Both the position numbers and the translations under genes were made by a program. Of a stretch of 64,000 nucleotides of DNA, positions 20,269-64,000 are shown piece after piece (position 1 is the first letter of the stretch; the number at the start of each line of letters is the position of its first letter). The notes under the pieces were generated by a model, which saw only the letters and a program-made list of their open reading frames with translations, did no database searches and was not told the origin of the DNA. Source of the DNA: Dehalococcoidia bacterium (GTDB lineage Bacteria > Chloroflexota > Dehalococcoidia > Lucifugimonadales > UBA3495); the NCBI GenBank assembly GCA_965222895.1, contig CBDCVB010000002.1, positions 1,349,663 through 1,413,662 on the forward strand. The letters are read 5' to 3'.

Positions 20269-20272
<4 letters not shown>
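18869..20272 (-). CDS. hpnE: hydroxysqualene dehydroxylase HpnE (FAD amine-oxidase/phytoene-desaturase-like)
   Basis: AIVLGGGLAGIAASVRLAEAGWGVTLIEARKSLGGRAFSF is a dinucleotide-binding motif. The gene is 467 aa, follows hpnC-hpnD, and its start overlaps the hpnD stop (20269-20272). Confidence 0.85.
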
Positions 20273-21161
<889 letters not shown>

Positions 21162-21165
<4 letters not shown>

Positions 21166-22187: not shown

Positions 22188-22203
22188 CTGCGGGGCTGGA
22201 GGG

Positions 22204-22656
22204 TCAGTCTCCGACGATCTGGAGCATTACCTCGCGGGGCCGGGGGTGATCCAGCTCGATGAAGAAGATGCTCTGCCACCGGCCAAAGGGCAGCTTGCCG
22301 TTGATGAGGGGAATGGTTTCGCTGCAACCCAGCATCAGATGCTGGAGGTGGGCGTGGCCGTTGGGCGATTCATTCTCGTTCATGTTGACGGTGCGGATGG
22401 TGAAGTCGTTGTGTCGGTAGTCGCCATAGCGCGGGCACATCTGCTCCAGGAAGCGCGTCATGTCTTCAATCAATAACGGCTCATTCTCATTAATCTTCAC
22501 CGCCGCCGTGGTGTGGCGGGAGTAAACAACGACAAAGCCGTTGCTGACGTGGGATTTGCCGACACATTGCTTGACCCAATCGGTGATGTCGATGAACTGG
22601 GGAGCGTCGTCCGTGTTGACTTTCAGGGTGAAGTTTTTGGTTTTCATAACCTTCAT
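22204..22656 (-). CDS. YjbQ/UPF0047 family protein (secondary thiamine-phosphate synthase-like)
   Basis: ..FIDITDWVKQCVGKSHVSNGFVVVYSRHTTAAVKINENEPLLIEDM..NGHAHLQHLMLGCSETIPLINGKLPFGRWQSIFFIELD. The start is at MKVMKTKNF. Confidence 0.8.
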   Translation of the reverse strand: MKVMKTKNFTLKVNTDDAPQFIDITDWVKQCVGKSHVSNGFVVVYSRHTTAAVKINENEPLLIEDMTRFLEQMCPRYGDYRHNDFTIRTVNMNENESPNGHAHLQHLMLGCSETIPLINGKLPFGRWQSIFFIELDHPRPREVMLQIVGD

Positions 22657-22723
22657 AAACAGGCTGGTATGAGTCGATAATTGTTGGTACTGACGATGTT
22701 GTACCGGCGGACGGGGACGAAGT

Positions 22724-24796: not shown

Positions 24797-24818
24797 TGGC
24801 GTCCGGTATTATCAGAAC

Positions 24819-25892: not shown

Positions 25893-26692
25893 GCGTTGGG
25901 TGCCGTTGTGAGAGGTTGTGCAGGAGGCCGGGAGTTTACGAAGTCCGCGACGCATCGGGTGAGACTGCGGCGGGCTACCCGAGCTTGGCGGGCGAGCTTG
26001 GTCAGCCGGAGCAGGTGGTGAGGGTGGGTAACGGCGCCCATGGCGACCAAAGCCGGGTTGCCGGCGGTGAGGTAGCCGGGGAGAGCCTCATCGGCGGTGT
26101 CCAGTACCACGCGAATAGAGGCGAAGGGGATACTGGCATCGGCTGCTACCTCGGCGGCCCAGTAGTCCTCCATGTTCACCGAGGCTGCGCCCAATGATTG
26201 CCGGTGGGTGGCTTTCGTAGCGGCGTCGGCAATCGTGAGCACGGTGGAGGATGGTTGGGTGTTTATGCTGCCGTCCTGACGGCGGGCCACGGCGCAGAGG
26301 GCCGAATGCAGGTTGGGGTCGGCCGGGATTTCGCCAGGTTGGGCGGACAGTCGGAAAGACGTGGCGATGTGCAGGTCTCCGGTGCGAAGGGAAGGATCGG
26401 CGGCGCCGCAGAACCCGACCATCAGCATTGCATCCGGCGCATCCGGTATGGCGCCGGGGAACATGGCATCGACAAACGTGGCAATGGATCGCTTTGCATC
26501 CAGCCTTTTGACGGCAATCGTGGATAGGCTGTTCAACGTGGCTTGCCGTCCGATGCCGGTGACGTGCAGCGAGACGTGAGTATGCGCCGGCGCTCCGACG
26601 TGTCGCCGGATGCCGGTTAGTTCGGTGGCCATGGGCGCGAGGATTGCCAGCATCGCAGGATGTTCCGTAGGAGGCGGAGGGTTAGTCACCAC
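25889..26692 (-). CDS. hpnG: hopanoid-associated nucleosidase/phosphorylase HpnG
   Basis: 267 aa with a PNP/MTAN-like N-terminus (MLAILAPMATELTGIRRHV). It lies between hpnH and hpnA, as in described hpn clusters. Confidence 0.7.
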   Translation of the reverse strand: MVTNPPPPTEHPAMLAILAPMATELTGIRRHVGAPAHTHVSLHVTGIGRQATLNSLSTIAVKRLDAKRSIATFVDAMFPGAIPDAPDAMLMVGFCGAADPSLRTGDLHIATSFRLSAQPGEIPADPNLHSALCAVARRQDGSINTQPSSTVLTIADAATKATHRQSLGAASVNMEDYWAAEVAADASIPFASIRVVLDTADEALPGYLTAGNPALVAMGAVTHPHHLLRLTKLARQARVARRSLTRCVADFVNSRPPAQPLTTAPNA

Positions 26693-26734
26693 GGCGAGGG
26701 GCGAGCGCCGTATTGGGCGGTGGCGGCCCGGGGA

Positions 26735-27811
26735 TCAACCGACACTGATGCCGCCCCGGTGAGCGGAGCCGGACTTGACGAGGGTCACCCAGTCTTTGGG
26801 TTTGCCGATGGCGTTGAAGATGGTGGCCGACTCAAAACCACAGTGCATCATGCAATTTGCGCAGCGCGGGTCGCGTCCAACGCCATACTTCTCTTCCCAG
26901 AGCTGAGGCTCGTAGAGGTCTTCCACATTATCGGTGTGTTCATCGGCCAGCGGGTAGCAGGGCTTGCGCCACCCCATCACGGTGTAGGTGGGGTTGGACC
27001 AGGCGGTGCACTGGTACTCGCGGTCGCCCCGCAGGAAGTTGAGGTACAGCGGGTTGTTGTACAACCGCATCCCATCCGTGCGGGTAGGATCCAGCAGGTT
27101 GCGGAATACATTGCGAGATTCCTGACGAGTCAGGAACAGGTCCTGATCGGGCGCGTCCTCAAAGTCATAGCCGGGTGAAATCATTGATCCCTCGACGCCG
27201 AGGTCGCTGACGTAGCGGAACATTTCGCGCAGGTCGTCCACATCGCTGTTGCGGAACACGGTGGTGTTGGTACAAACACGATAGCCCTGCTCGACGGCCA
27301 TCTGGATGCCAGCGACGGCGCGGCGAAACACACCGGAGCGGGCCACCGATTCGTCGTGCTTTTCTTCCATGCCATCCATGTGAATGACCCAGCAGAAGTA
27401 TTTGGACGGCGGGATTTTCTTAAGCATTCTCTCCAGGAGCAGAGCGTTAGTGCAGCAGTAGACGAAGTATTTTTCGGCCACCAGCGCGTTGATTATCCGG
27501 TCGATATGCGGGTGGATGGTGGGTTCGCCGCCGGCGATGGAAACGATGGGAGCGCCGGCTTTGTGGACGGCATCGAGGGCTTCATCGACGGGCATCATCT
27601 TGTCCAGAACGCCGCGGTATTCGCGGATGCGCCCGCAGCCAACGCAGGCCAGGTTACACATTTCCAGCGGCTCCAGCATGGTAACGAGAGGGAACCGTTT
27701 GCGTCCCCGCAGGCGGTTTTTGAGGATGTACCAACCCGTCTTCACCCCCAGTTCCAGAGGGCGCTTCGCCGGCTTGATGGCGGCGGGTTGGTCTTTCAGG
27801 GTTTGCACCAT
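26735..27811 (-). CDS. hpnH: adenosylhopane synthase HpnH (radical SAM)
   Basis: ..RKRFPLVTMLEPLEMCNLACVGCGRIREY contains the CxxxCxxC cluster, and ..DPRCANCMMHCGFE lies at the C-terminus. The likely start is MVQTLKD at 27811. Confidence 0.85.
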   Translation of the reverse strand: MVQTLKDQPAAIKPAKRPLELGVKTGWYILKNRLRGRKRFPLVTMLEPLEMCNLACVGCGRIREYRGVLDKMMPVDEALDAVHKAGAPIVSIAGGEPTIHPHIDRIINALVAEKYFVYCCTNALLLERMLKKIPPSKYFCWVIHMDGMEEKHDESVARSGVFRRAVAGIQMAVEQGYRVCTNTTVFRNSDVDDLREMFRYVSDLGVEGSMISPGYDFEDAPDQDLFLTRQESRNVFRNLLDPTRTDGMRLYNNPLYLNFLRGDREYQCTAWSNPTYTVMGWRKPCYPLADEHTDNVEDLYEPQLWEEKYGVGRDPRCANCMMHCGFESATIFNAIGKPKDWVTLVKSGSAHRGGISVG

Positions 27812-27925
27812 TTGGGGTCTCCCGTTAGTTATCCATGCGTAACTGTCGATGAGCGGATTTGCGCCGCCAATGGGCCGGTTCCGTTGAAATGTAGTTGAAA
27901 TGTAGATGATGGCCGGCAAAGTCGC

Positions 27926-28252
27926 CTACCGTGCCGGTGTCTGGGAAAATGTGGTCATCTCCCGCCAGTGTGATTGGTTGCACTCGCATCCGTCGTACCA
28001 AGACCGTGCTACAGGATGGGTGTCAGGGACGGGATTGAATTCTATCCCCCTTTCTGCCAAGAACCTGACCGGACCGCCCTGTCCCCAATCTTGATATGAA
28101 TACCAGCGCTGCGGTTGATGGGCAAGTGCTGTCAGACAGGCGTCTAAGTAGGCAAATTGTCGAGGCGTGCGCTCGCTGAGCGGGACCTCTATGATGTTTT
28201 TAATCGCGTCCACGCCTCCCTTATTCAGTTTCCCAGAGTTGTTAGTGGTCAT
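27926..28252 (-). CDS. hypothetical protein (108 aa) embedded in the hopanoid cluster
   Basis: Clean ORF with GGAAAGGA upstream of its ATG. It looks lower in GC than its neighbours. No family recognised. Confidence 0.45.
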   Translation of the reverse strand: MTTNNSGKLNKGGVDAIKNIIEVPLSERTPRQFAYLDACLTALAHQPQRWYSYQDWGQGGPVRFLAERGIEFNPVPDTHPVARSWYDGCECNQSHWREMTTFSQTPAR

Positions 28253-28337
28253 ATCCTTTCCTGTGGCATTCTATTTCCATCATCTATAATTCGACGGAAC
28301 CAATGCGCTGTCGGCATCCACGCCAAAACAGACGGTG

Positions 28338-29447
28338 CTAAAACAGACGGTGGGCGAGAAAGTCAACGAGATTTTCGGCATCCTGCGTTGCCCAGGGCGG
28401 TAGTTCGAGCATTGCCAAAGCTGAGCGGGCCTCGTCGGCGGTTACTTCGGTGAGGTGGTCGGTGTGGCGGGCGGCGCCGATTTCGTCCAGCACTTCCATA
28501 ACTTGGTCCACGTCTGATTCGTCCAGAGATTCCTGGGAGTAGATACGGAGCAACTCGGAGCGGGCGCCGCCGGTGGCTTCCTGAAAGGCGAACACAATCG
28601 GGTAGCTCTTTTTGCGCTGCACGATGTCGCTGTCGGTGGACTTGCCGGTGATGGCTTCGTCGCCCCAGATGCCGAGGTAGTCATCGCGAATCTGGAATAG
28701 GCGGCCCACGGAGCGTCCGAAGCGGGCGACGCCGCTGATGGTTGCTTCGTCATCGGTAGCGATGGTGGCCCCGATTTCCATGCCGCACCTGATGAGCGCG
28801 CCGGTTTTGAGGGCAATCATGTCCAGATATTCGTCGGCGGTGATGGTGTCGCGCTGCTCGAACTGCAGGTCGCGGCACTGGCCTTCGATCATCTCCAGAT
28901 AGCTGTCCGTAAGCAGACCGGACACGCGTATTGCGGTGTTGGGGGCGATGCCGTCATTGAACCCAATGGTAGCCAGGTCGCCCAGGGATTGCATCGCATC
29001 GCCGGCGACCAAGGCCCGCGGTGTGCCCCAGAGCGCCCACACGGTCGGTTGGTGGCGGCGTTCAAAACCCTCGTCCTGAATGTCATCGTGGACGAGGGAG
29101 AAGTTGTGGATGAGCTCCAGGGCGGCGGCGGCCGGGGCGGCATGGCCGGGTTCACCCTGCAGGGCCTCGCAGGCGAAGATGCAGAGGGTGGGACGCAGCG
29201 CCTTGCCCTGGGATGCGGGCGTGGACGACGGTACGCCGTTGCGGTTTGACCAGCCGAGGTGGTATCGAAGCAGGCTGTGTACAACGTGTTGCTCTGCGGG
29301 CGGGACACTTCCGGCCATCGCCTGTTCCACCTGGGAACGGTAGCGGTCGAACATTCCCGGCAACGCCGGGCCGACGCTTGGCGAGGTCATGAGAGGCTGA
29401 CGACTCGATTGTTGAGACGCCGCCGAAGCGGTTGGTGATGTGCCCAT
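28338..29447 (-). CDS. polyprenyl diphosphate synthase (FPP/GGPP synthase family)
   Basis: First Asp-rich motif LVHDDIQDE and second motif FQIRDDYLG. Confidence 0.9.
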   Translation of the reverse strand: MGTSPTASAASQQSSRQPLMTSPSVGPALPGMFDRYRSQVEQAMAGSVPPAEQHVVHSLLRYHLGWSNRNGVPSSTPASQGKALRPTLCIFACEALQGEPGHAAPAAAALELIHNFSLVHDDIQDEGFERRHQPTVWALWGTPRALVAGDAMQSLGDLATIGFNDGIAPNTAIRVSGLLTDSYLEMIEGQCRDLQFEQRDTITADEYLDMIALKTGALIRCGMEIGATIATDDEATISGVARFGRSVGRLFQIRDDYLGIWGDEAITGKSTDSDIVQRKKSYPIVFAFQEATGGARSELLRIYSQESLDESDVDQVMEVLDEIGAARHTDHLTEVTADEARSALAMLELPPWATQDAENLVDFLAHRLF

Positions 29448-29581: not shown

Positions 29582-30814
29582 AGGGCAATCGCGTCTTAAT
29601 GGTAATTTTTTGAATTATGCTAATGTTGGCTGATTCGATAAAACTAGAGAGGGCGACGGGCCATGGCAGAATCACATCACGTATCGATCTTGGACCATTT
29701 CGACGACTTGGACGACCCACGGGTGGAACGGACCCGACGCCACCAGCTGGTGGATATTATAGCCATCGCCATCTGCGCCGCCATCTGCGGAGCCGATTCC
29801 TGGGTCCATGTGGAACTCTTTGGCAAGAGCAAGCTGGAATGGTTTCAAACCTTCCTGGAATTGCCCAACGGTGTCCCCTCCCATGACACCTTCGGCGATG
29901 TCTTTGCGCGTCTGGACCCAGCCCAATTCCAGAACTGCTTCGTGTCTTGGACCCAGGCCATCGCCGAACTGCTGCCCGGTGAGGTGGTCGCCATTGACGG
30001 CAAGACGGCCCGACGGTCCTACGACCGGGCGGGGAGCAAGGGAGCCATGCATCTGGTCAGCGCCTGGGCTACGCAGAACACCCTGACGTTGGGGCAGGTC
30101 AGGACGGCGGAGAAGTCCAATGAGATCACCGCCATTCCCCAACTGCTGGACTTGCTGGATCTGCACGGCTGCATCGTGACCATTGACGCCATGGGCTGCC
30201 AGCGGGAGATTGCCCAGCAGATCACAGACGGCGGGGCCAATTACGTCCTGGCGGTGAAGGAGAACCAGGGTCAACTCCACGAGGGCATCCGAGACCTGTT
30301 CGAGGGGGGCGGAGGCGTTGGGCTTTGACGGGGTGCCCTACGACTACTCCCAGACCGTGAACAAGGGACACGGACGGGTGGAACGGCGGGAATGCTGGAC
30401 CATCACCGCGACGGACTGCCTGGACTACATCAACCCTCACGGGCAATGGCCCCAACTGAAGGCCGCCATCAAAGTGGTCGGCCATCGTGAGACCGCAGCC
30501 GGCGCGATCAGTCAACCTCGCTACTACATCAGCAGCCTGCCAGCCCCAGCAGGACAACTGCTGGCTGCCGTCAGGAGCCATTGGAGCATCGAGAACTCAC
30601 TGCACTGGACTTTGGATGTAACCTTTCGAGAAGATCAGTGCCGAGTGCGCAAAGACCACGGGCCGCAGAATCTGGCCACCCTGCGTCAGATCTCCCACAA
30701 TCTACTGAAAAACGAAAACAGCATCAAAGTGGGCATCCAGGGCAAACGGCTCAACGCCGGTTGGCGTGAAGACTACCTACTAAAAGTACTCCTCGGATAA
30801 GACGCGATTGCCCT
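29582..30814 (+). mobile_element. ISAs1-family insertion sequence (1233 bp) with 17-bp perfect terminal IRs and a 12-bp target-site duplication
   Basis: IRL AGGGCAATCGCGTCTTA (29582-29598) is the reverse complement of IRR (30798-30814). The direct repeat GCGGATGGCGCC flanks the element at 29570-29581 and 30815-30826. Confidence 0.9.
29663..30800 (+). pseudogene. ISAs1-family (IS4-like, H-repeat) transposase split by a +1 frameshift in a G6 run
   Basis: ORF 29663..30328 (..ILDHFDDLDDPRVERTRRHQLVDIIAIAICAAICGADSW..VAIDGKTARRS..ITAIPQLLDLLDLHGCIVTIDAMGCQ..) continues in ORF 30318..30800 (..KGHGRVERRECW..VRSHWSIENSLHWTLDVTFREDQCRVRK..). Removing one G from 30304-30309 restores ..DLFEGAEALGFDGVPYDY... 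Confidence 0.85.
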
Positions 30815-46111: not shown

Positions 46112-46290
46112 ATCGCGGACTGAATCAATGGCTACCACCGGCGCGGTGGTGTGAATCAGGTCAGATGCCCGGGGGATTGCGCCACGCATTTCGCCGGGCG
46201 TTTGACTGATTATCGTTACTAGGCAGCGGGAGATGAGCGTCGGGGCCGTGTTTAGGATGGTCAATGTCTTGGAATCTGGAGGGTTTCTTA

Positions 46291-47261
46291 ATGGTGAATT
46301 TGGGGGCGATTGAAAAGGTTGACCTGCGGGAGGTTTGGCCGAACGAGGCGTCGGACTTTACTCCGTGGCTATGCGATAACCTGGACAAATTGGGCGCTGC
46401 CCTGGGGCTGGATTTGGAGCTGCAATCACCGGAAGCCCCGGTGGGCGCGTTTTCGCTTGACGTGCTGGCGCACGACCTGGGGAGCAACCGGCCGGTAATC
46501 ATCGAGAATCAATTGGAGGCAACCGACCACGACCATCTTGGGAAACTGCTTACCTACGCCGCCGGCTACGATGCTTATGCCGTCGTCTGGCTGACGCGGG
46601 AATTTCGGGATGAGCACCGGCAGGCGCTCGACTGGCTGAACCAGCGTACCGGAGACGACACCCAATTTTTCGGCGTAGTAGTCGAGGCCTGGAAAATCGA
46701 CGAATCTCGGCCGGCGCCACATTTCAGGCCGGTGGCTATGCCGAATGAATGGCAAAAGCGGACAGCCACTGAATCGGCAAAAAACAGTTTCGGTAATGTT
46801 TCCGAGAGGGGGGAACGCTATCGCGCGTTCTTTCAGAGTCTTATGGACACGTTGCGCGAGAAGCATCGTTTCACCAACGCCCGTAAAGGACAGCCGCAAA
46901 GTTGGTACAGTTTCAGTTCCGGGTATTCTGGGGTTGCCTACGGAGCGTCATTTTCGAGGGATGGAAAACCACTGCGTACATTGACATTGCCCGCCGAGAC
47001 ACTGCTAGCCGAGACGAAGAGTGGAATAAGCGGCTGTTCGATAGATTGGCGCAACGCACGGAATGTATCCAATCACAGTTTTCGGAAAAGTTGGTATGGG
47101 ATTACGTTGAAAACCGTTCGGTCTGCTACATCATGGTCGAACGCGATGGGCAAATTATCGATGACCAGGAGACGTTGAGCGAAATTCAGGAATGGATGGT
47201 GAAGCAGTTGCTGGCCTTCAAGCGCGTTTTTGGGCCGCATTTGGCGGAGTTGGTAAAGTAG
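46291..47261 (+). pseudogene. PD-(D/E)xK nuclease-like / DUF4268 protein gene, split by a 1-nt frameshift at an A-run
   Basis: ORF 46264..47178 (..FSLDVLAHD..VIIENQLEATDHDHLGKLLTYAAG..) switches to ORF 46902..47261 (..KTTAYIDIARRD..EEWNKRLFDRLAQRTECIQSQFSEKLVWDY..). Adding one A to the run at 46965-46968 restores ..ASFSRDGKTTAYIDI... Confidence 0.7.
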
Positions 47262-47311
47262 TGGGTGATACACTGGCAATTGTCAGCAACCATCATGCGA
47301 GGTGATTGGGT

Positions 47312-47698
47312 ATGGGAACATTCAACGTGGAATTGCGAATCGGCGCGCTTGATTTTTCGGCGTGGGAGACGGTTAGCGCACTGGCAGATACAGGTGCCAT
47401 ATATTCCATGGCGCCGGCCAGCCTGTTGCGTCGGTTGGGAGTGGAACCGGAGGAATCGGTGGAATTTGAACTCGCCGGCGGTGAGATCGTCCAATACGAA
47501 ACGGGGTATGCAGCCTTCGCCGTAATGGACAGGCTCGGCCGGGCACGGGTCATTTTTGGCCCGGATGGCGAATACCTGATGGGAGCAACTACATTGGAAG
47601 ACCTGGCGCTGATGGTCGATCCGGTGAACTATCGCCTGATTCCCACGAGACATTTGCTGAAACGGGAGTTTCCTACCAACGACTCTGAACCCGGTTAG
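47312..47698 (+). CDS. retropepsin-like (clan AA) aspartic protease, copy 1
   Basis: MGTFNVELRIG..VSALADTGAIYSMAPASLL..GEYLMGATTLEDLALMVDPVNYRLIP carries a DTG active-site motif. GAGGTGA lies 6 nt before ATG 47312. Confidence 0.7.
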   Translation: MGTFNVELRIGALDFSAWETVSALADTGAIYSMAPASLLRRLGVEPEESVEFELAGGEIVQYETGYAAFAVMDRLGRARVIFGPDGEYLMGATTLEDLALMVDPVNYRLIPTRHLLKREFPTNDSEPG

Positions 47699-47742
47699 AT
47701 TGCTGATGCGAAACATAGATTAACGATGCTTATAGATTAAAG

Positions 47743-48441
47743 ATGACTATTGAAGTTGGTGAATACGACGCAGCGCTGGCGCTGGCTTATGAAGCAGGGT
47801 GGACTGATGGGTTGCCAATCGTGCCGCCTACTGCCGAGCGGGTGCGGGCGTTTCTGGATGTGTCGGGTCGGTCGGCGCTGGAACTGGTTGGGGAGATACC
47901 GCCCCGCGGCGGGCGGGCCACGGTGGAGAAGCTGGCGACCAACGCGGTGATGGCGGGGTGTCTGTCGGAGTATTTTCCGGTAGTGATTGCCGCGATTGAG
48001 GCGCTGCTACTGCCGCGGTTCAACTTGGCATCGGTGCAATGTTCGACGCATATTGCTACACCTTTAGTGGTGGTGAACGGGCCGATTGCGCGGGAACTGG
48101 AGATGAATGGCGCCGGCAACTGTTTCGGGCAGGGCAACCGGGCTAACGCAACCATCGGGCGCGCGGTCAAGCTGGCGCTGACCAATCTGGGCGGCGCGCT
48201 GCCGGGCGACGAAGACCGCGCCACGTTCGGACACCCGGGCAAGTACACGTACTGCATTGCTGAAAACGAGGTGGAGAACCCCTGGGAGCCGTATCACGTG
48301 GAACACGGCTACCGCCCCAATGAGTCGGTGGTGACGGTGCATCCGGCGGAAGCGCCCCACAACCTGAACAACCACGGAGTAGAGCAGTTGATGGCCTTCA
48401 AGCGGGTGTTTGGCCCGCATTTAGCGGAGTTGGTGAAGTAG
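47743..48441 (+). CDS. truncated paralogue of gene X fused to a DUF4268-derived C-terminal tail (chimeric product of the duplication)
   Basis: Residues 8-213 are almost identical to ORF 48870..49898. After ..PHNLNNHG it continues VEQLMAFKRVFGPHLAELVK, which matches the end of the DUF4268 gene (..VKQLLAFKRVFGPHLAELVK). No obvious SD. Confidence 0.55.
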   Translation: MTIEVGEYDAALALAYEAGWTDGLPIVPPTAERVRAFLDVSGRSALELVGEIPPRGGRATVEKLATNAVMAGCLSEYFPVVIAAIEALLLPRFNLASVQCSTHIATPLVVVNGPIARELEMNGAGNCFGQGNRANATIGRAVKLALTNLGGALPGDEDRATFGHPGKYTYCIAENEVENPWEPYHVEHGYRPNESVVTVHPAEAPHNLNNHGVEQLMAFKRVFGPHLAELVK

Positions 48442-48492
48442 CGGGAGATGACCTCTGCAAGCGCCAACCTTCATAACCAGGAGGCAATCGGT

Positions 48493-48873
48493 ATGGGCAT
48501 TTTTAGCGTTGAGCTGACGGTGAGGAACCGCGATACCCTGGTGGGTGAGACGGTGACGGCAGTGGTTGATACCGCAGCAACGATTTCGGTTATGCCGGTC
48601 AGCTTGCTGAATCGGCTGGGCATCTCGCCGGCCAGGACACGCCGGTTTCGCCTTGCCAACGACCAGACAATAGAGTACCAAACCGGAATGGCGCTGTTTG
48701 CAACCGCCGGCAGGGACGGGGAAGCCAGCGTAGCTTTCGGGCCGGAAGACCGCTACCTGATGGGCGCAACCACCATTGAGGAACTGACATTCGTCGTTGA
48801 CCCGATACATAAGCGGCTGATTCCCGAGGATATGCTGCTGCTGCGCAGCCGGACAGAGAATGATGACAGATGA
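48493..48873 (+). CDS. retropepsin-like (clan AA) aspartic protease, copy 2 (DTA variant)
   Basis: MGIFSVELTVRN..VTAVVDTAATISVMPVSLL..DRYLMGATTIEELTFVVDPIHKRLIP. AGGAGG lies 8 nt before ATG 48493. Its stop overlaps the start of the next gene (ATGA 48870-48873). Confidence 0.7.
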   Translation: MGIFSVELTVRNRDTLVGETVTAVVDTAATISVMPVSLLNRLGISPARTRRFRLANDQTIEYQTGMALFATAGRDGEASVAFGPEDRYLMGATTIEELTFVVDPIHKRLIPEDMLLLRSRTENDDR

Positions 48874-49898
48874 CAATGGATAGCCACTACGACGCAGCGC
48901 TGGCGCTGGCTTATGAAGCAGGGTGGACTGACGGGTTGCCCATTGTGCCGCCTACTGCCGAGCGGGTGCGGGCGTTTCTGGATGTGTCGGGTAGGTCGGC
49001 GCTGGAACTGGTTGGGGAAATACCGCCCCGCGGCGGACGGGCCACGGTGGAGAAGCTGGCGACCAACGCAGTGATGGCGGGGTGTCTGCCGGAGTATTTC
49101 CCGGTGGTGATTGCCGCGATTGAGGCGCTGCTGCTGCCCCGGTTCAACCTGGCATCGGTGCAATGTTCGACTCACATTGCTACGCCGCTAGTGGTGGTCA
49201 ATGGGCCGATTGCGCGGGAACTGGAGATGAATGGCGAAGGCAACTGTTTCGGGCAGGGCAACCGGGCCAACGCAACCATCGGGCGGGCGGTCAAGCTGGC
49301 GCTGACCAATTTGGGCGGCGCGCTGCCGGGCGACGAAGACCGCGCTACGTTCGGACACCCGGGCAAGTACACGTACTGCATTGCTGAGAACGAGGTGGAG
49401 AACCCCTGGGAGCCGTATCACGTGGAACACGGCTACGGTCCCGATGAGTCGGTGGTGACGGTGCATCCGGCGGAAGCGCCCCACAACCTGAACAACCACG
49501 GAGCCGACAATCCCAGGGACCTGCTGACCACATTTGCGATGTCGATGGCGATACCAGGCTGCAACAACATCCACGTGATGGGCGACGTGCTGCTGGTGCT
49601 GGGGCCGGAGCACGCTGACATCATTGCCAGCGCCGGCTGGAGCAAGAATGACGTGCGGTCGTACCTGTACGAACTGGCGCGCCAGCCTCTATCCGTCCTG
49701 AAACTGGGCGGCATCCACGGGCGTCATGCCCACCGCAACACGCTGTGGCCGCGCTGGATCGACCGCAACGACGATGACGCCATGGTTCCGGTGGTGCGCC
49801 GTGCGGAGGATATTCACATTATGGTTGCCGGTGGGCCGGGCCGGCATTCGTTGTACATACCGGGCTGGGGTTCGCGGATTACGTCGGCTGCGGTTTAA
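48870..49898 (+). CDS. conserved-looking hypothetical protein X (342 aa), family not recognised
   Basis: ..AGWTDGLPIVPPTAERVRAFLD..EKLATNAVMAGCLPEYFPVVIAAIEALL..VQCSTHIATPLVVVNGPIARELEMNGEGNCFGQGNRANATIGRAVKLALTNLGG... It is translationally coupled to protease copy 2. Confidence 0.7.
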   Translation: MTMDSHYDAALALAYEAGWTDGLPIVPPTAERVRAFLDVSGRSALELVGEIPPRGGRATVEKLATNAVMAGCLPEYFPVVIAAIEALLLPRFNLASVQCSTHIATPLVVVNGPIARELEMNGEGNCFGQGNRANATIGRAVKLALTNLGGALPGDEDRATFGHPGKYTYCIAENEVENPWEPYHVEHGYGPDESVVTVHPAEAPHNLNNHGADNPRDLLTTFAMSMAIPGCNNIHVMGDVLLVLGPEHADIIASAGWSKNDVRSYLYELARQPLSVLKLGGIHGRHAHRNTLWPRWIDRNDDDAMVPVVRRAEDIHIMVAGGPGRHSLYIPGWGSRITSAAV

Positions 49899-49960
49899 TT
49901 TGCCCGGTTTGATTAACATGGATGAACAGGATGAAAAGGATACTGTTGGGAGGAGATTGG

Positions 49961-50539
49961 ATGATGAGCGATAGCAGAGTTGATTTGCAGGCTCGCATCG
50001 CCGCGTTGGGATTGCTGGATCCCACCGACCGGCAGGAAGCGCCGAAGCGACGCGCGGCGACACCGCTGGAGACATTGGAAGGACGAACCGGCGGGTTCCT
50101 GGACAATCACAAAGGCAATGCCGACGTAATACTGGAAGCCATTCGCCGGGAGTTGTCCGCCGGGTACGGCATGACCGATTCGGTGGTGCTGGCCAAGTGG
50201 GTGTTTTCGGCCCCGGCGGCGCCGGAGATTGTCGACGAACTGGCGCAGTGCGATTTCGTGGTTACGGCGGTGGGGGATTGAGGGAGCTGTGTGGCGCGCA
50301 GTTTGCGCGATGCGGTGGAACTGGAAGACCGGGGTGTGCGGACGGTGGTAGTGCATACCGAGGCATTCTGCTCGGCAGCCGAGCAGCACATCGTATCGTT
50401 GGGCCGACCCGATTACGAAGGTTCGGTGTACATTAAACACCCGGTGGCGGCGCTGGACGAGGCAGCAATCAACCAACGCGTCGAACCCGTGGTGGGTGAC
50501 ATCGTGTCCGCGCTGTTGGGGCACCGGCGGGAGGATTGA
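49961..50539 (+). CDS. probable selenoprotein with a U-G-S-C motif (in-frame UGA at 50279-50281)
   Basis: ORFs 49922..50281 and 50291..50539 share one frame. Read through, the sequence is ..VVTAVGD-U-GSCVARSLRDAVELEDRGVRTVVVHTEAF... GGGAGGAG lies 5 nt before ATG 49961, and there is no SD before 50291. Confidence 0.6.
50295..50309 (+). other. candidate SECIS apical hairpin
   Basis: CGCGCA-GUU-UGCGCG is a perfect 6-bp stem starting 14 nt after the UGA. Confidence 0.3.
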
Positions 50540-57009: not shown

Positions 57010-57639
57010 ATGGCAACGCGGACTCAGAACATATCGCGCTGGATGTCGTTGGGCGAGGTTAGCCGCACGCTGGACATCAATGAGGCGACGTTGCGCCAGT
57101 GGGCCGACCGGGGACGTTTGCCGGTGTTCCGGACGCCGGGCGGACATCGGCGGTTCCTGCGCGAAGATGTCGAAGCCCTGATGCAGGGTTCAGTAAGCGC
57201 CGCAACCACCGGGCCCGACCCGGAGGAGATGGTGCTGCGTCGAATCCGGCGCAAACTGAGCCAGATGGATCCGTCGGTGCAAACCTGGATTGGCGGGTTT
57301 CAGGCCGAGGGTCGCGACCGAATGCGGTTGTTCGGCCGGCGTCTATTGTCTTTGCTGTTGCAGGAAGGGCTGAACGGGCGGGGCCGACGCAAGGGTGAAA
57401 CCCTGTCGGAAAGCCATATGCTGGGCCACGAATACGGGGCCGAAATGGCAGACCGCGCGGTGTCGCTGTCCGACAGTGTGCAGGCGTTTCTGTTCTTCCG
57501 ACAGGCCGTGGTGGAAGTAGTGCGGCCGGAGCGGTTGAAGCAGGTGATTGAAATTTCGGACCGGGTGCTCCTGGGTCTGGTGGACGCATACGGGGCCAGG
57601 TTGACCGATATTGACGCAGCAGCCGACCAGAACGCGTAA
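57010..57639 (+). CDS. MerR/excisionase-type HTH transcriptional regulator
   Basis: ..MSLGEVSRTLDINEATLRQWADRGRLPVFRTPGGHRRFLREDVEAL.. followed by a helical C-terminal domain. Confidence 0.7.
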   Translation: MATRTQNISRWMSLGEVSRTLDINEATLRQWADRGRLPVFRTPGGHRRFLREDVEALMQGSVSAATTGPDPEEMVLRRIRRKLSQMDPSVQTWIGGFQAEGRDRMRLFGRRLLSLLLQEGLNGRGRRKGETLSESHMLGHEYGAEMADRAVSLSDSVQAFLFFRQAVVEVVRPERLKQVIEISDRVLLGLVDAYGARLTDIDAAADQNA

Positions 57640-57667
57640 CCCGTGGGCGGCAACAAAGAGAGGCGAG

Positions 57668-58750
57668 ATGACCACCGGAACGATGGACATTACGGACCGC
57701 AAGCTCCTGAACATTATCCAGACCGAGTTTCCGGTTGCGGAAGAACCGTACCGAGCGGTTGCGGAGCAGCTGGGCATCGCCGAAGCGGATGTTCTGGAGC
57801 GGCTGGCCGAGTTGAAACGCCAGAACGTGGTGCGTCAGGTCAGCGCGATTTTCGACACGCGACGGCTGGGTTACAAGACTACGCTGGTGGCCTTCGCCTA
57901 TGCCGACCCCGACCTGCACAGCGGGGCAATTTTCATTAACCGACACCCCGGCGTCAGCCACAACTACGCCCGGGAAGGTTCCTACTACAACCTCTGGTTC
58001 ACGCTGGCCGTGCCGCCGGATGGCGACCTTGAGGCGACCGTCCGATGGATGGCGGAACAGACCCATGCAATCGAATTTCGCGTTATGCCGACCATCCGGT
58101 TTTTCAAGATTGGCGTGAACTTCGATATGGTCAAGCAGCGCAGCGACGCCCATAACTACAGTCCTGATGGCATTGGCAACCCGCAAATTCCGTCGGCCGG
58201 TTGGGATCAGGCGCAGGCGATCACCGACTGGGATAAAGACGTGATTAGGGAGGCGCAGGAAGACCTGCCGCTGGTGTCGCGCCCGTTTGATGCCATGGCC
58301 TCTCGATTGGGGTTGTCGGTGCCGGAGCTGTTCGCCCAGTTGGCGGAGTACCAGGAGCGCAAATTAATGCGCCGTTTCAGCGCGGTGCTGCACCACCGAC
58401 GCTCCGGGTTCCGGGCCAACGCCATGATTGTGTGGAAGGTTCCGTCGGAACGCTCGGAGGAAGTGGGCATGATAATGGCCCAGAATTCGGCGGTGACCCA
58501 CTGTTACGAGCGTCCCACGTTCCCCGACTGGGAGTACAGCCATTTCACCATGGTACACGCGCCGACGCGCGACGAGTGCGAGGATATTGGCAGGGATATT
58601 GCGGCAGCCACCGGCATCAGCGACAACCTGTTGCTGTACAGCACGCGGGAGTACAAGAAGACTCGTGTTCGCTACTTCGTCGAGGACTACGAGCGGTTTT
58701 GGGATACTGCCGAGGAGGCCGAAGCATTGGCCGAGCCGGTAGGTGACTGA
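57668..58750 (+). CDS. ahbAB: siroheme decarboxylase, fused AhbA/AhbB (NirD/L-like, Lrp/AsnC fold duplicated)
   Basis: Two homologous halves. The first reads ..DITDRKLLNIIQTEFPVAEEPYRAVAEQLGIAEADVLERLAELKRQNVVRQVSAIFDTRRLGY..HPGVSHNYAR... The second reads ..DKDVIREAQEDLPLVSRPFDAMASRLGLSVPELFAQLAEYQERKLMRRFSAVLHHRRSGF..AVTHCYERP... Confidence 0.8.
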   Translation: MTTGTMDITDRKLLNIIQTEFPVAEEPYRAVAEQLGIAEADVLERLAELKRQNVVRQVSAIFDTRRLGYKTTLVAFAYADPDLHSGAIFINRHPGVSHNYAREGSYYNLWFTLAVPPDGDLEATVRWMAEQTHAIEFRVMPTIRFFKIGVNFDMVKQRSDAHNYSPDGIGNPQIPSAGWDQAQAITDWDKDVIREAQEDLPLVSRPFDAMASRLGLSVPELFAQLAEYQERKLMRRFSAVLHHRRSGFRANAMIVWKVPSERSEEVGMIMAQNSAVTHCYERPTFPDWEYSHFTMVHAPTRDECEDIGRDIAAATGISDNLLLYSTREYKKTRVRYFVEDYERFWDTAEEAEALAEPVGD

Positions 58751-58849
58751 CGTAATTCCCGGACGGCTATCCGCCACGGACGGTTGCCGCCGATGTTTTA
58801 CCGAACCTGTACCACTTGCCGATTTCTAGTTTTCGTTTGGATTGCATAG

Positions 58850-59569
58850 ATGCCTGAATACTATCCCGTCTACCTGAACCTGACCGGTAAATGCTGCGTG
58901 ATTTTGGGCGGCGGCACCATCGCGCAGGGCAAAATTGCGGCCCTCCGGGACGCCGGCGCCAGCATCACGGTGATTAGTCCGGAAGCCACCGATGGGATCA
59001 AGCGGGCCGCCCAGCGCCGGGACGTTACCTGGCTGGAACGGGAATACCAGCCGGGCGACCTGGAGGGCGCATTCATCGCCGTGGCCGCCACCAACGTGTG
59101 GCATGTGAATCGGCAGATTCATGAGGAAGCCGAGGCCAGGGGCGTATTGTTGAATGTCGTTGACGACCCCGACCAATGCTCGTTCATTGCCCCGTCGATA
59201 GTGCGGCGGGATCCTATTACGCTGGCAATTTCAACCGGCGGGGCCAGTCCTGCTCTGGCGCGCAAGATGCGCGAAGTTCTGTCCGAGGCGCGGGTGTTGC
59301 AGTGGGCCGAACTGGCTGGCGTGCTGGCCCAGGCGAGGCGGGTCATCAAGGAGCAACGGACGATCATCGACCCGACACGTTGGCAGTGTGTCATCACCGA
59401 GGAACTGTTGGAACTGACGCGAAATGGCGACGACGCTAAGGCGGTCCACATCATCCTGAATCAATTGCAGGACTCGGAGATACCGGAGATGTGCGCTGAT
59501 TTGTCGAAATGCCGTCCCGGGGGCTGTGCGAAGCGGGCCGCCCTGCGCGCTGCGGAGGCGGTAAGTTGA
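58850..59569 (+). CDS. sirC: precorrin-2 dehydrogenase / sirohydrochlorin ferrochelatase (SirC/Met8-like)
   Basis: YYPVYLNLTGKCCVILGGGTIAQGKIAALRDAGASITVISPE..AFIAVAATN..LLNVVDDPDQCSFIAPSIVRRDPITLAISTGGASPALA. Confidence 0.85.
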   Translation: MPEYYPVYLNLTGKCCVILGGGTIAQGKIAALRDAGASITVISPEATDGIKRAAQRRDVTWLEREYQPGDLEGAFIAVAATNVWHVNRQIHEEAEARGVLLNVVDDPDQCSFIAPSIVRRDPITLAISTGGASPALARKMREVLSEARVLQWAELAGVLAQARRVIKEQRTIIDPTRWQCVITEELLELTRNGDDAKAVHIILNQLQDSEIPEMCADLSKCRPGGCAKRAALRAAEAVS

Positions 59570-60846
59570 GCCTGCTAGTGCTGGGTCTGGACCACCGCAC
59601 AGCGCCGGTGGACGTGCGCGAGCGGTTGAGCGTAGAGCGGGAACAGTTGCCCGACGCGCTGGAACAACTCGCGGCCTACGTGCCACAGTCGGTGATTCTG
59701 TCCACCTGCAACCGCACCGAGATTTACACCTACGACCGGGACGATATTGGCCTCGTGGGGCGCGTCGGCAATTTTCTGATTGGCTATTCGGGGATCGATG
59801 GGCCGGTGCTGGAGCGGCATCTGTATCAGGCTTGGGAAGGCGAGTGTGTGCAGCATCTGTTCCGGGTAGCTGGCGGCCTGGAATCAATGATTGTGGGCGA
59901 GCGGCAGATTTTGGGGCAGGTGCGCGCATCCTTCAGCACGGCCAGCCAAACGGGATCCGTGCAGAGCCCGTTAACCAGGGTGTTCCACAGCGCCCTGCGG
60001 GCCGGCCGACGGGTGCATCGTGAAACCAACATTGGCCGCCACTCGCGGTCGGTGAGTCGGGCCGCCGTGCAGCTGGCCAGGGGGATGTTTGACCGACTGG
60101 ATAACCGTCGGGCGCTGGTCATCGGGGCCGGCGACGCGGGTCGCATGGTGGTCCGGGCGCTGGGCGACGCCGGGGTCAAGGCGATTACCGTTGCCAACCG
60201 CACTCAGTGGCGCGCGGAAGACCTGGCAAAAGAGCTGGGCGGCGTCGCGGTGCCGTTTGAGGGTCTGCAAAGCGCGCTGGCCGACGCCGATTTGGTAATC
60301 AGCAGCACGGGTTCGCCCGGTTACGTGGTGGATGCCGGGATGGTGTCCGAAGCCGTGCGCAACCGCGCCGCATCAGATCCGTTGATGCTAATTGACATTG
60401 CCGTTCCCCGCGATGTCGATCCGGCGGTGGCGGAGCTGGATGGCGTGCGGCTGTACGACATTGACGCGCTGGGGCAGGTCGCAGAAACCGCGCTGGACAG
60501 TCTGGACGCCGAGGTAAGCGCCGCGACCGGAATCATCGACGAGGAATGGACCCGGTTCGTCGAACGGTGGAATTCGTCCGACACGCTGGAACTGGTTGCG
60601 GCGATGCGTCAGCGCGCGGAGGAAGTGCGCCGGCTGGAAGTGGAGCGAACGCTCAAACAGCTGGGCGCCGATGCAGATGGAGCAACAGCGGAACGGCTGC
60701 ACGCCATGACTGCTGCGTTGGTCAAGAAGTTGCTGCATCAGCCGACGGTTGGGCTGCGCACCGGCGACAGTGCTTCGGTGTTTCCGGTGGCCAAACAACT
60801 CTTCGACTCTGACGCCAAACCCGGCCGGGGCCGTGGTCGCCGGTAA
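59566..60846 (+). CDS. hemA: glutamyl-tRNA reductase
   Basis: LSLLVLGLDHRTAPVDVRERL..ILSTCNRTEIY..GLESMIVGERQILGQVR..VIGAGDAGRMV... TTG 59566 overlaps the sirC stop (TTGA), with GGAGG upstream. Confidence 0.9.
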   Translation: MSLLVLGLDHRTAPVDVRERLSVEREQLPDALEQLAAYVPQSVILSTCNRTEIYTYDRDDIGLVGRVGNFLIGYSGIDGPVLERHLYQAWEGECVQHLFRVAGGLESMIVGERQILGQVRASFSTASQTGSVQSPLTRVFHSALRAGRRVHRETNIGRHSRSVSRAAVQLARGMFDRLDNRRALVIGAGDAGRMVVRALGDAGVKAITVANRTQWRAEDLAKELGGVAVPFEGLQSALADADLVISSTGSPGYVVDAGMVSEAVRNRAASDPLMLIDIAVPRDVDPAVAELDGVRLYDIDALGQVAETALDSLDAEVSAATGIIDEEWTRFVERWNSSDTLELVAAMRQRAEEVRRLEVERTLKQLGADADGATAERLHAMTAALVKKLLHQPTVGLRTGDSASVFPVAKQLFDSDAKPGRGRGRR

Positions 60847-60859
60847 CGGGCCGCGCGCC

Positions 60860-61774
60860 GTGGTGCGGGTGGGCACCAGGGGTAGCCGGCTGGCCCTGAT
60901 CCAGACTGAATTGACGCTGGCTATCCTGCAGGCAGCGTTCCCGGACGTGTCCTTTGAGGTTGTAACGGTTACAACCCAGGGCGACGCCAATCAGACGGCG
61001 CCGTTGGCCGGCATGGGCCTGGGTGTGTTCGTCAAAGAGATTGAGCGCCGCCTGGAAGATGGCGATATCGACATGGCGGTGCACAGCCTGAAGGATATGC
61101 CCACCGTGTTGCCGGCGGGGATGACTATCGGGGCGGTGCTAGAGCGGGCCGACCCTCGGGATGTGCTGGTTACGCACCTGGGCATGGGTCTGGCGGATTA
61201 TCCGTCGGGGGGATTGATTGGAACCAGCAGTCCCCGGCGCGTGGCCCAGATTGCCGGCAGCCGTCCCGACGTTGCCATTGTGCCGATTCGCGGCAACGTG
61301 GAGACTCGGCTCCGCAAAGCCGGCGGCGAGGAGTGTGACGGAACGGTAGTGGCCGCCGCCGGGTTGCTCCGTTTGGGAATGGCTGACGTAATCACCGAGT
61401 ACCTGCCGCCGCAGGAATTTGTCCCGCCGCCAGGCCAGGGTGCGATGGCAGTGGAGATTCGCACGGACGACGACTGGATGCGCGAGGTGGTGTCCTCGGC
61501 GCACCACCAGGCTACGGGTGCGGCGGTTAGTGCCGAGCGGTCGTTTCTGGAGGCGTTGGGCGGGGGATGTCAGGTGCCGGTGGGCGCTTATGCCGATACG
61601 GTCGGCGCCGATGCTGCGCGGTTGGAGCTGAACGTGTTCCTGGCATCGCCCGACGGCGGCCGGGCTTACCGCGCCACCGTCAGTGGCGCCACGGTTGATC
61701 CGTCCGACCTGGCAGCGGCGGCGTGGGAGCAGCTGCGGCAGCAGGGTGCCGACACGCTCCTGACCAGCGTCTAG
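60860..61774 (+). CDS. hemC: hydroxymethylbilane synthase (porphobilinogen deaminase)
   Basis: VVRVGTRGSRLALIQTE..VTTQGD..GVFVKEIERRLEDGDIDMAVHSLKDMPT..GTSSPRR..IRGNVETRL... The probable start is GTG 60860. Confidence 0.9.
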   Translation: MVRVGTRGSRLALIQTELTLAILQAAFPDVSFEVVTVTTQGDANQTAPLAGMGLGVFVKEIERRLEDGDIDMAVHSLKDMPTVLPAGMTIGAVLERADPRDVLVTHLGMGLADYPSGGLIGTSSPRRVAQIAGSRPDVAIVPIRGNVETRLRKAGGEECDGTVVAAAGLLRLGMADVITEYLPPQEFVPPPGQGAMAVEIRTDDDWMREVVSSAHHQATGAAVSAERSFLEALGGGCQVPVGAYADTVGADAARLELNVFLASPDGGRAYRATVSGATVDPSDLAAAAWEQLRQQGADTLLTSV

Positions 61775-61799
61775 TGTACGCCGAGTCGAGCGTCGGGCA

Positions 61800-63335
61800 A
61801 TGAGCGCGTCAACGGGCAAGGTTTACCTGGTGGGAGCCGGGCCGGGGGATCCGGGTTTGCTCACGGTGAAGGGCGCGCGAGCGCTCGCCGCCGCCGATGT
61901 GGTCGTGTACGACCGACTGCTGGATCCATCGTTGTTGACGTTGACCGGAGAGACGGCCCGCAGCATCTTCGTTGGCAAGGAGCGGGGACGGCAGGCGCTG
62001 TCGCAGGGTGAGATTAACGACCTGCTGGTGTCGGAAGGCTTGGCCGGCAATTGCGTGGTGCGGCTGAAAGGTGGGGATCCGTTTGTGTTTGGGCGCGGCG
62101 GTGAGGAGGCTTTGGCGTTGGCCGAGGCCGGGGTGCCTTTTGAGGTGGTGCCGGGAGTTACTTCGGCTATTGCGGCGGCAGCCTACGCCGGTATCCCGGT
62201 AACGCACCGCGGTGTCTCCACGGCGGTAACCATCGTTACGGGCAGCGAAGACCCCACCAAGGGTGAAACGTCCACGCCGTGGCCGGCGTTGGCCAGAGCT
62301 GGCGGCACGCTGGTAGTGCTGATGGGTTGGGCAACCCTCCCCGGCATTGTCACGACGCTGCAGGATAACGGCATGGCCGCCGACACACCGGTGGCGCTGG
62401 TGCAGTGGGGCACGTGGAGTCGGCAGCGCACGGTGTCGGGCACGCTGGCCGACATTGCGAAACGCGGCAAAGCGGCCGGCATCGGGTCCCCGGTGGTGGC
62501 AATCATCGGTGCGGTGGCCGCGCTGCGCGACGACATCGCCTGGTTCGACCGGAGGCCGTTGTGGGGCAAGCGCGTGCTGGTAACGCGGTCGCGCACCCAG
62601 GCATCGCATCTTATTGAGTTGCTGGTTGATTTGGGCGCGGAGCCGATTGAATTGCCGTCCATCGAGATTGGCCCGCTGGACGACTATGACGAGCTGGATG
62701 GGGTGTTGACTGATACGGCCGGCGTGAAGGGTCGCTGGATTATTTTCGCGAGCGCCAATGCCGTCGAATACGTGTGGGCGCGGTTGCAGGCTATGGGGCA
62801 TGACGCCCGTTACTTCGCCGGCGCCACGATAGCCGCCATTGGGCCAGCGACTTCGGATGCGCTGGTCAGGCGTGGCATACAGCCCGATTTCGTTCCGCAA
62901 CGGTCGGTGTCGGCAGAGGTTATTGCCGAGCTGGAGGGTCGGGACTGGAACGGCCGTCTGGCGCTGCTGCCGGGGTCTGCGATTGGCCGAGATGAGTTGG
63001 CCAGCGGGTTGGCGAGGCTGGGCGCGAACGTCCGCAGGGTCGCCGCCTACCGGAACGTGCGCCCCGAGGGTATTGCAGCTCAGGCCCTTGAGACGCTGCA
63101 AAAAGGGGTCGATGTGGTAACCTTCACGAGTTCGTCTACGGTGCGCAACCTGCTGGAAATACTGGGCGAACAGCGCGATTTGCTGCGCGGCAGCGTAACG
63201 GCGTGTATCGGGCCGATTACCGCCGCCACCGCCGCCGAGAGTGGGTTGCAGGTTGACATAATCGCCAATACGCACAATGTGCAAGGGCTGGCCGACGCGC
63301 TGGTCAGCCACTTTGCCGATGGCCGCGACGTTTAG
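61800..63335 (+). CDS. cobA/hemD: uroporphyrinogen-III C-methyltransferase fused to uroporphyrinogen-III synthase
   Basis: The N-terminal half reads GKVYLVGAGPGDPGLLTVKGARALAAADVVVYDRL..LKGGDPFVFGRGGEE.., the SUMT pattern. The C-terminal 250 or so aa read ..GKRVLVTRSRTQAS..ANAV..VTFTSSSTV.., the HemD pattern. Confidence 0.9.
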   Translation: MSASTGKVYLVGAGPGDPGLLTVKGARALAAADVVVYDRLLDPSLLTLTGETARSIFVGKERGRQALSQGEINDLLVSEGLAGNCVVRLKGGDPFVFGRGGEEALALAEAGVPFEVVPGVTSAIAAAAYAGIPVTHRGVSTAVTIVTGSEDPTKGETSTPWPALARAGGTLVVLMGWATLPGIVTTLQDNGMAADTPVALVQWGTWSRQRTVSGTLADIAKRGKAAGIGSPVVAIIGAVAALRDDIAWFDRRPLWGKRVLVTRSRTQASHLIELLVDLGAEPIELPSIEIGPLDDYDELDGVLTDTAGVKGRWIIFASANAVEYVWARLQAMGHDARYFAGATIAAIGPATSDALVRRGIQPDFVPQRSVSAEVIAELEGRDWNGRLALLPGSAIGRDELASGLARLGANVRRVAAYRNVRPEGIAAQALETLQKGVDVVTFTSSSTVRNLLEILGEQRDLLRGSVTACIGPITAATAAESGLQVDIIANTHNVQGLADALVSHFADGRDV

Positions 63336-63360
63336 TCGCCGATGACGAGGAGGCTTCACC

Positions 63361-64000
63361 ATGCTGAAACACCCTGATTTGCGCTTGCGACGAGTGCGTG
63401 AAAAGGCGTCGGTACGCGATCTGGTGCGTGAGACGCGGATGAGCGCCGCCAACTTCATCTACCCGATGTTCGTTACCCACGGCGAGAATGTTCGGCAGGA
63501 GATTGAGCCGATGCCCGGGTGCTATCACACGTCCGTCGACCGGCTGAGCGAAGAGATTGATGAGGTGGTGGAACTGGGAATACCGTCGGTGTTGCTCTTC
63601 GGTTTGCCGCCGGACAAGGACGCGGTGGGCAGCGGGGCCTACGACCCGGAGGGCATTATTCAGGAAGCAACGCGCGCCATCAAGCAGCGCGCGCCGGGAC
63701 TGATGGTCATTGGCGACGTGTGCCTGTGCGAATACACCGACCACGGCCATTGCGGCGTCATCGACAACGGCAAGGTGGACAACGACGCCACGCTGGAGCT
63801 GTTGGCGCGCTCGGCGTTAACGCAGGTGCAGGCTGGCGCCGACATGGTGGCTCCGTCGTCGATGATGGACGGGCAGGTGCGTGCCATACGGGAAACGCTG
63901 GACGCACACGGCTACTATGACACGCCGATAATGGGGTATGCTGCCAAGTACGCCTCGTCGTTCTACGGGCCGTTTCGCATCGCCGCCGACTCCACGCCGC
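63361..64000 (+). CDS. hemB: porphobilinogen synthase (5-aminolevulinate dehydratase), 5' part, runs off the window end
   Basis: My own translation from ATG 63361 (GAGGAGG upstream) gives MLKHPDLRLRRVREKASVRDLVRETRMSAANFIYPMFV..GDVCLCEYTDHGHCGVID..MVAPSSMMDGQV..YAAKYASSFYGPFR. This includes the Cys-rich Zn site. The gene is not in the ORF track because it has no stop. Confidence 0.9.
   Translation, partial: MLKHPDLRLRRVREKASVRDLVRETRMSAANFIYPMFVTHGENVRQEIEPMPGCYHTSVDRLSEEIDEVVELGIPSVLLFGLPPDKDAVGSGAYDPEGIIQEATRAIKQRAPGLMVIGDVCLCEYTDHGHCGVIDNGKVDNDATLELLARSALTQVQAGADMVAPSSMMDGQVRAIRETLDAHGYYDTPIMGYAAKYASSFYGPFRIAADSTP

Follow-up and report, generated by a model that had tools for sequence, protein, structure and literature searches.

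Proteins containing the motif U-G-S-C (U, selenocysteine or Sec) have been described as a family since the mid-2000s and are listed in selenoproteome surveys. In the Global Ocean Sampling sequences, UGSC ranked fifth in abundance among prokaryotic selenoprotein families, being represented by 255 Sec forms and 21 Cys forms, and recent reviews still call its function uncharacterised. A 2008 paper gives the fold as 'likely Trx-like' and notes a UGSC/Unknown_1 fusion. The bacterial SECIS model used by bSECISearch, as summarised in a 2026 review (PMC13188914), calls for an apical loop of 3-9 nt on an upper stem of 4-16 bp. The first two positions of the loop include a G, often with G or U after it, the loop lies 16-37 nt from the UGA, and the folding energy is -7.5 kcal/mol or lower. 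A 2026 selenoprotein database paper places Dehalococcoidia genomes that carry 46-49 selenoprotein genes among the richest known.

We analysed a 64-kb stretch of DNA, here called the window, which contains a gene with an in-frame TGA inside a D-U-G-S-C motif. This gene adds a divergent member, from a Dehalococcoidia/SAR202-type genome, to the known UGSC family and does not represent a new kind of element.

Gene layout and start codon

A scan of one genome per species identified 37 UGSC loci (L001-L037), giving 38 sequences together with the window. Twenty-nine of these loci belong to close relatives, of Dehalococcoidia or SAR202 type, with 73-92% protein identity; the remaining eight are distant (35-46% identity) and come from other Chloroflexota, Candidatus Dormiibacterota and one Betaproteobacterium. 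The principal features of the window gene are as follows.

49961-50539 (+): UGSC-family selenoprotein gene (predicted), complete, 192 codons, with UGA-Sec as codon 107 and the stop TGA at 50537-50539
49948-49955 (+): Shine-Dalgarno-like sequence GGGAGGAG, 5 nt before ATG 49961, read directly
50279-50281 (+): in-frame UGA, predicted to be read as selenocysteine, the U of U-G-S-C; TGA in 38/38 sequences, with Cys aligned in homologues
50288-50290 (+): codon for the putative resolving Cys of the UxxC redox pair; TGY in 38/38 sequences, and C110 invariant among aligned full-length members

The open reading frame upstream of the in-frame TGA begins at ATG 49922 or ATG 49961 and runs to 50279-50281, and the open reading frame from GTG 50291 to 50539 lies in the same frame. 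A preliminary description, made from the letters of the window, had proposed a frame shared across the TGA at an offset of 369 nt, and this was confirmed, the same frame continuing to TGA 50537-50539. Read through, the junction is ...DFVVTAVGD-U-GSCVARSLRDAVELEDRGVRTVVVHTEAF..., with GSCVARSLRD after the U. The UGA thus occupies the first residue of a UxxC/CxxC-type pair, as had also been proposed: the read-through product has U-G-S-C where homologues have DCGSC.

The program-made list of open reading frames places the UGSC start at ATG 49922. Two relatives (L001 and L007), however, have a stop codon immediately 5' of the counterpart of ATG 49961, and homologous proteins start at the counterpart of this same codon, so that we take ATG 49961, and not 49922, as the start. 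AGGA/GGAG-like runs lie 5' of the UGSC start in many relatives. The preliminary description assigned a ribosome-binding sequence to the first half of the gene and none to the second; the former stood, whereas the latter did not, as a purine run, GAGGGAG, is present at 50280-50286, 4 nt 5' of GTG 50291.

Membership of the UGSC family

With U replaced by C for the search, the read-through product matched the Pfam family PF24696 (UGSC) at 149.7 bits, against a cutoff of 25 bits (E 1.1e-43). The match spans residues 18-186 and profile positions 2-171 of 172, covering both halves of the protein. The NCBIfam equivalog NF041046 (UGSC_fam) matched over profile positions 2-146 of 147 with 114.3 bits (E 4.7e-33), below its curated cutoff of 125 bits. 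The family membership that had been tentatively suggested therefore holds end to end for the Pfam model and falls short of the cutoff for the NCBIfam model. By these sequence scores, the window protein is a divergent subfamily, which the NCBI rule would not name from NF041046 alone.

A sequence search recovered 62 database relatives, around 50 of which are stubs of 105-126 aa, hypothetical or unnamed, that end exactly at ...AVGD, evidently because the UGA was taken as a stop in gene calling. Relatives of full length (174-202 aa) share 32-39% identity with the window protein and have Cys aligned to the UGA, in a DCGSC motif. Homologues spanning both halves with Cys at this position, which the preliminary description had named as a check on its reading, thus exist, mostly in Actinobacteria. 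A profile search added 1434 further members, many of them Actinobacterial and carrying the NCBI name 'UGSC family (seleno)protein', and an exhaustive profile search gave 4572 representative clusters at E <= 0.001.

A conserved hairpin after the UGA

The hairpin CGCGCA-GUU-UGCGCG occupies positions 50295-50309, beginning 13 nt after the UGA, and forms the upper part of a larger stem-loop.

50286-50316 (+): SECIS stem-loop (putative), with lower stem 50286-50292/50310-50316, bulge 50293-50294, upper stem 50295-50300/50304-50309 and loop GUU 50301-50303

Set against the published SECIS model, the hairpin has a loop of GUU, an upper stem of 6 bp, a spacing of 19 nt and an energy of -7.8 kcal/mol for the upper hairpin, which reaches -14.1 kcal/mol when the 7-bp lower stem and 2-nt bulge are included. 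Within the window, 34 of 1650 TGA trinucleotides (2.1%) are followed by a hairpin that satisfies the SECIS criteria with six Watson-Crick pairs, and 2 of 1650 by one that combines six Watson-Crick pairs with a G-U-N triloop. Relative to shuffled sequences, the 67-nt segment after the UGA does not fold with exceptional energy (z = -0.66), and the weight of the evidence for the hairpin lies in its conservation and not in its energy.

The upper stem is paired in 37 of the 38 sequences, the exception being a single C-A mismatch in L002, and the G and U of the loop are invariant in all 38. Compensatory changes were identified at two pairs of the upper stem, from C-G to U-A in eight sequences and from C-G to G-C in two, and one pair of the lower stem changes on both sides in five sequences. 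When the 3' partners were slid by one to three columns, pairing fell from 93% to 12-57%. As the stem lies within coding sequence, the compensatory changes appear as coupled amino-acid replacements, from ...VARSLRD (R...R, CGC/GCG) to ...VSCSVHD (C...H, UGC/GCA) and to ...T(A/S)W(G/S)(L/V)HD (W...H, UGG/CCA). These changes represent few independent events, in about two or three clades. The hairpin thus lies where the preliminary description had placed it, orthologues retain it, with compensatory changes, and it agrees with the published model of bacterial SECIS elements.

A simple contiguous-stem SECIS test was applied to the 38 Sec forms and to six Cys forms. It was passed by 34 of the Sec forms and failed by five of the Cys forms, although the failing Cys forms are still paired at four to five of the six stem positions. 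One Cys form (L044, 48-572, P0061) retains a 19-nt hairpin, GUCGUGGAGUGUCCACGAC, that is the same as in the Sec-type Betaproteobacterial locus (L037), and its sequence suggests that Sec was recently replaced by Cys and that the hairpin is a fossil SECIS.

Decoding of the in-frame UGA

We searched for the selenocysteine machinery in the window and in the regions flanking the related loci. ARAGORN detected no tRNA genes in the window, and in the flanks of the 37 loci it detected tRNA-Leu and tRNA-Arg and no tRNA-Sec. The window has no Rfam matches at gathering thresholds, and SelA, SelB and SelD are not among the approximately 50 window genes scanned with Pfam. None of selA, selB, selD and tRNA-Sec was found across the 64-kb window and approximately 450 kb of related flanks. 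For the window this says little, as 64 kb is a small part of a genome of approximately 4 Mb, and such an outcome is expected by chance.

The missing machinery is nonetheless what would be seen if the UGA were read through without selenocysteine, by a near-cognate Trp or Cys tRNA or following a lineage-specific reassignment, with the hairpin as a generic stimulator; downstream hairpins can stimulate read-through in other systems. We consider this explanation improbable, however. TGA is the ordinary stop of 12 of 39 other Pfam-supported window genes, indicating that the code has not been reassigned and that recoding is site-specific. The UGA falls on the catalytic residue of a UxxC/CxxC pair, with Cys in homologues; the G-U of the loop and the spacing after the UGA match the SelB-type SECIS consensus; UGSC is a recognised selenoprotein family; and the Dehalococcoidia include selenoprotein-rich genomes.

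Alternatively, the TGA could be a real stop, in two genes or a pseudogene, with a 106-aa N-terminal protein ending at 50281 and an 82-aa piece starting at GTG 50291. The purine run before this GTG kept such a reading alive until it was tested against relatives, and in public gene calls the N-terminal piece, of 105-107 aa, stands as a protein of its own in approximately 50 clusters. Conservation across the junction nevertheless makes it very improbable. The TGA in D-U-G-S-C and a conserved open frame after it were found in all 37 related loci, bearing out the expectation of the preliminary description that orthologues would retain both. Over the 30 close sequences, pN/pS is 0.197 in the 60 codons before the TGA and 0.159 in the 72 codons after it, indicating that purifying selection on the downstream half is as strong as on the upstream half, and the variable sites are distributed as 32, 21 and 65 over codon positions 1, 2 and 3. 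The codons immediately following the UGA vary synonymously across the 38 sequences, with Gly encoded by all four GGN codons, Ser switching between AGY and TCN, and Cys by TGY. The stretch between the TGA and the GTG is consequently selected as protein, with translation running straight through the UGA. Moreover, the counterpart of GTG 50291 is ACC, ACA or ACG in L034, L036 and L037, and the GAGGGAG run is missing from L030-L037 in the same 38-sequence alignment, so that distant relatives argue against independent initiation of the second half. The Cys homologues and the fusion proteins described below are single chains across the junction, and a split would part the two redox residues.

A sequencing or assembly error for TGC or TGT, which a single base difference would suffice to produce, is refuted by the same TGA in 37 independently assembled genomes from several phyla.

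Taken together, these comparisons make it very likely that 49961-50539 is a Sec-decoding UGSC gene with a SECIS element, and we infer that selenocysteine is actually inserted at the UGA. No convincing second selenoprotein candidate emerged when the window was scanned for further in-frame TGAs flanked on either side by coding-like sequence.

A conserved partner gene

Immediately upstream of the UGSC gene, and probably co-transcribed with it, we identified a second conserved gene.

48870-49898 (+): conserved partner gene, 342 aa, with no Pfam or NCBIfam model, adjoining the UGSC gene upstream

A partner gene is adjacent to UGSC in 36 of the 37 Sec-type loci. In most of these it precedes UGSC, in L036 and L037 it follows, and the one Sec-type locus without it is L028. 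It is likewise adjacent in five of the six Cys-type loci (Actinobacteria and others), with 38-55% identity. The partner family contains at least 7996 clusters, all of them unnamed or 'hypothetical'. No Pfam or NCBIfam model matches the partner, Pfam searches at E <= 10 added no family for either the partner or UGSC, and a PDB sequence search returned nothing for the partner and only noise for UGSC. The structure model of the partner (pLDDT 86.5) had no Foldseek match at E <= 0.001; its best match, the alpha subunit of class I fumarate hydratase (E 9e-3, TM 0.31), was not relied on. Two cysteines, C72 and C170, are invariant in the partner and are kept from Chloroflexota to the Actinobacterial partners.

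We additionally identified single-chain fusions of UGSC and partner, of 485-657 aa, in P0314, P0366, P0378, P0392 and P0430. Alignment of the first two to the window partner gave 43-45% identity, and the remaining three were recognised by eye. These fusions probably correspond to the UGSC/Unknown_1 fusion of the 2008 paper. New here are the near-obligate 342-aa neighbour, sometimes fused to UGSC, the fusions to other redox domains, and the flavodoxin-like predicted fold.

Genomic surroundings

The region upstream of the partner gene contains a second, incomplete copy of it, which is not part of the selenoprotein system.

47743-48441 (+): near-identical second copy of the partner, truncated to its first two thirds, approximately 1.1 kb upstream

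Positions 47764-48063 and 48888-49187 form a direct repeat with 94% DNA identity over 300 nt, and tblastn gave 90% protein identity over 228 aa between duplicate and partner. The duplicate ends in a foreign 20-aa tail (...FKRVFGPHLAELVK), which is also found at 47203-47260. Two genes for retropepsin-like aspartyl proteases (PF13650/PF13975), at 47270-47683 (+) and 48448-48873 (+), are 46% identical to each other, and both lie between a luciferase-like monooxygenase gene and the partner gene. The open reading frame at 47186-47716 (-) is an antisense artefact of one of these copies. In the 29 loci L001-L029, the region upstream of the partner contains between zero and four aspartyl protease copies, sometimes with short fragments of the partner 5' end (L004, L017). 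This spot is a variable recombination hotspot.

The DUF4268 protein encoded at 46264-47178 (+) has a match (E 7e-95) to PDC-S11, a phage-defence candidate in PADLOC, but this covers only positions 1-229 of the 318-position profile. The DUF4268 gene looks frameshifted, as the C-terminal tail (47151-47260) lies in another frame. PADLOC gave no defence match for UGSC, the partner or the aspartyl proteases.

Elsewhere in the window, a hopanoid biosynthesis cluster at 18869-29447 (-) encodes an amine-oxidase-type oxidoreductase, two squalene/phytoene synthases, squalene-hopene cyclase, epimerase-family and phosphorylase-family proteins, a radical SAM protein with DUF3463, and a polyprenyl synthetase. 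A DDE_Tnp_1 transposase at 29663-30800 (+) is present as two open reading frames (221 and 160 aa) and is probably a frameshifted or decayed insertion sequence. A tetrapyrrole cluster at 57611-63999 (+) encodes a siroheme decarboxylase (NirDL-like), a siroheme synthase-like NAD-binding protein, glutamyl-tRNA reductase, porphobilinogen deaminase, a fused uroporphyrinogen methylase/synthase and ALA dehydratase, which suggests an alternative, siroheme-dependent haem pathway.

Predicted fold and proposed redox function

A Cys homologue, P0256, which shares 43% identity with the window protein, was modelled with AlphaFold (pLDDT 89.9). The model shows a beta-alpha repeat of five strands, with the CGSC motif placed after strand 88-94 and before helix 97-112. 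In the PDB it is most similar to TIR, lumazine synthase, flavodoxin-like and FMN-reductase domains (TM 0.4-0.5), all of them generic flavodoxin-like domains, and no thioredoxin is among these matches. The UGSC fold is accordingly predicted to be flavodoxin-like; the thioredoxin fold is not supported by this model.

Domain fusions were found with redox proteins other than the partner. In P0364, UGSC is fused to a Pyr_redox_2 domain, which is thioredoxin-reductase-like. In relatives of Dormiibacterota type, a NifU-like domain with its own CxxC is attached to the C-terminus of the UGSC selenoprotein (PF01106, 32 bits; cutoff 27 bits).

L031, 6316-6850: UGSC-NifU-like fusion
L032, 6286-6820: UGSC-NifU-like fusion
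L033, 6316-6850: UGSC-NifU-like fusion

In a further locus (L038), a thioredoxin gene and a thioredoxin-reductase-like gene flank the UGSC-partner pair. The fusions to thioredoxin-reductase-like and NifU-like domains suggest that UGSC acts as a redox carrier.

We propose the following mechanism for the locus. The UGA at 50279-50281 would be recoded to selenocysteine with the hairpin at 50286-50316 as its SECIS, which, by analogy with characterised bacterial systems, would bring SelB and its Sec-tRNA(Sec) to a ribosome positioned at the UGA. In the product, the Sec residue and the Cys three residues further on (U-G-S-C) would then lie at the start of a helix in the modelled flavodoxin-like alpha/beta domain, where the pair may cycle between selenol/thiol and selenenylsulfide states. 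A thioredoxin-reductase-like flavoprotein would reduce UGSC, and UGSC would in turn hand electrons to the 342-aa partner.

That UGSC is a dedicated redox carrier for the adjacent 342-aa protein is the best supported of the functional models, though still a tentative proposal, drawn from gene context and fusions. We hold with the same reserve the broader possibility that UGSC and the 342-aa protein constitute a widespread two-component redox enzyme, seleno-dependent in some lineages, in which the partner would be the catalytic subunit and UGSC its dedicated electron carrier, fed by the thioredoxin-reductase-like flavoprotein, with a NifU-like link in some lineages. The direction of electron flow and the chemistry of the partner are part of this proposal.

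The partner gene and the fusions provide a concrete, testable hypothesis for UGSC function. Public gene calls split UGSC genes at the UGA; a single selenoprotein of 192 aa is the appropriate annotation for the window gene and its relatives. The coupled changes of the SECIS-stem amino acids between clades constitute a clear case of RNA structure constraining protein, and the locus adds to the evidence that sponge- and marine-associated Dehalococcoidia/SAR202 use selenocysteine.

Comparison with known systems

The window protein resembles the known UGSC family (PF24696/NF041046) in having the domain end to end, U/C-G-S-C at the same position and a putative SECIS right after the UGA, with Cys forms elsewhere in the family. 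It differs in being only around 30-43% identical to the Actinobacterial Cys forms that dominate NF041046, and in having an N-terminal extension of approximately 17 residues.

The hairpin likewise resembles the bacterial SECIS consensus, with its 3-nt loop, 6-bp stem, G followed by U, 19-nt spacing and energy of -7.8 kcal/mol or lower, although its loop is of the minimum size, 3 nt. The SECIS of Escherichia coli fdhF has a bulged U, with no counterpart evident in the window element.

Finally, UGSC shares with the relays of thioredoxin and thioredoxin reductase a U/CxxC motif at the N-terminus of a helix, as modelled, a fusion to Pyr_redox_2, and thioredoxin system genes in one locus. In contrast to these relays, the UGSC model does not have a thioredoxin fold, and the proposed electron acceptor is an uncharacterised 342-aa protein.
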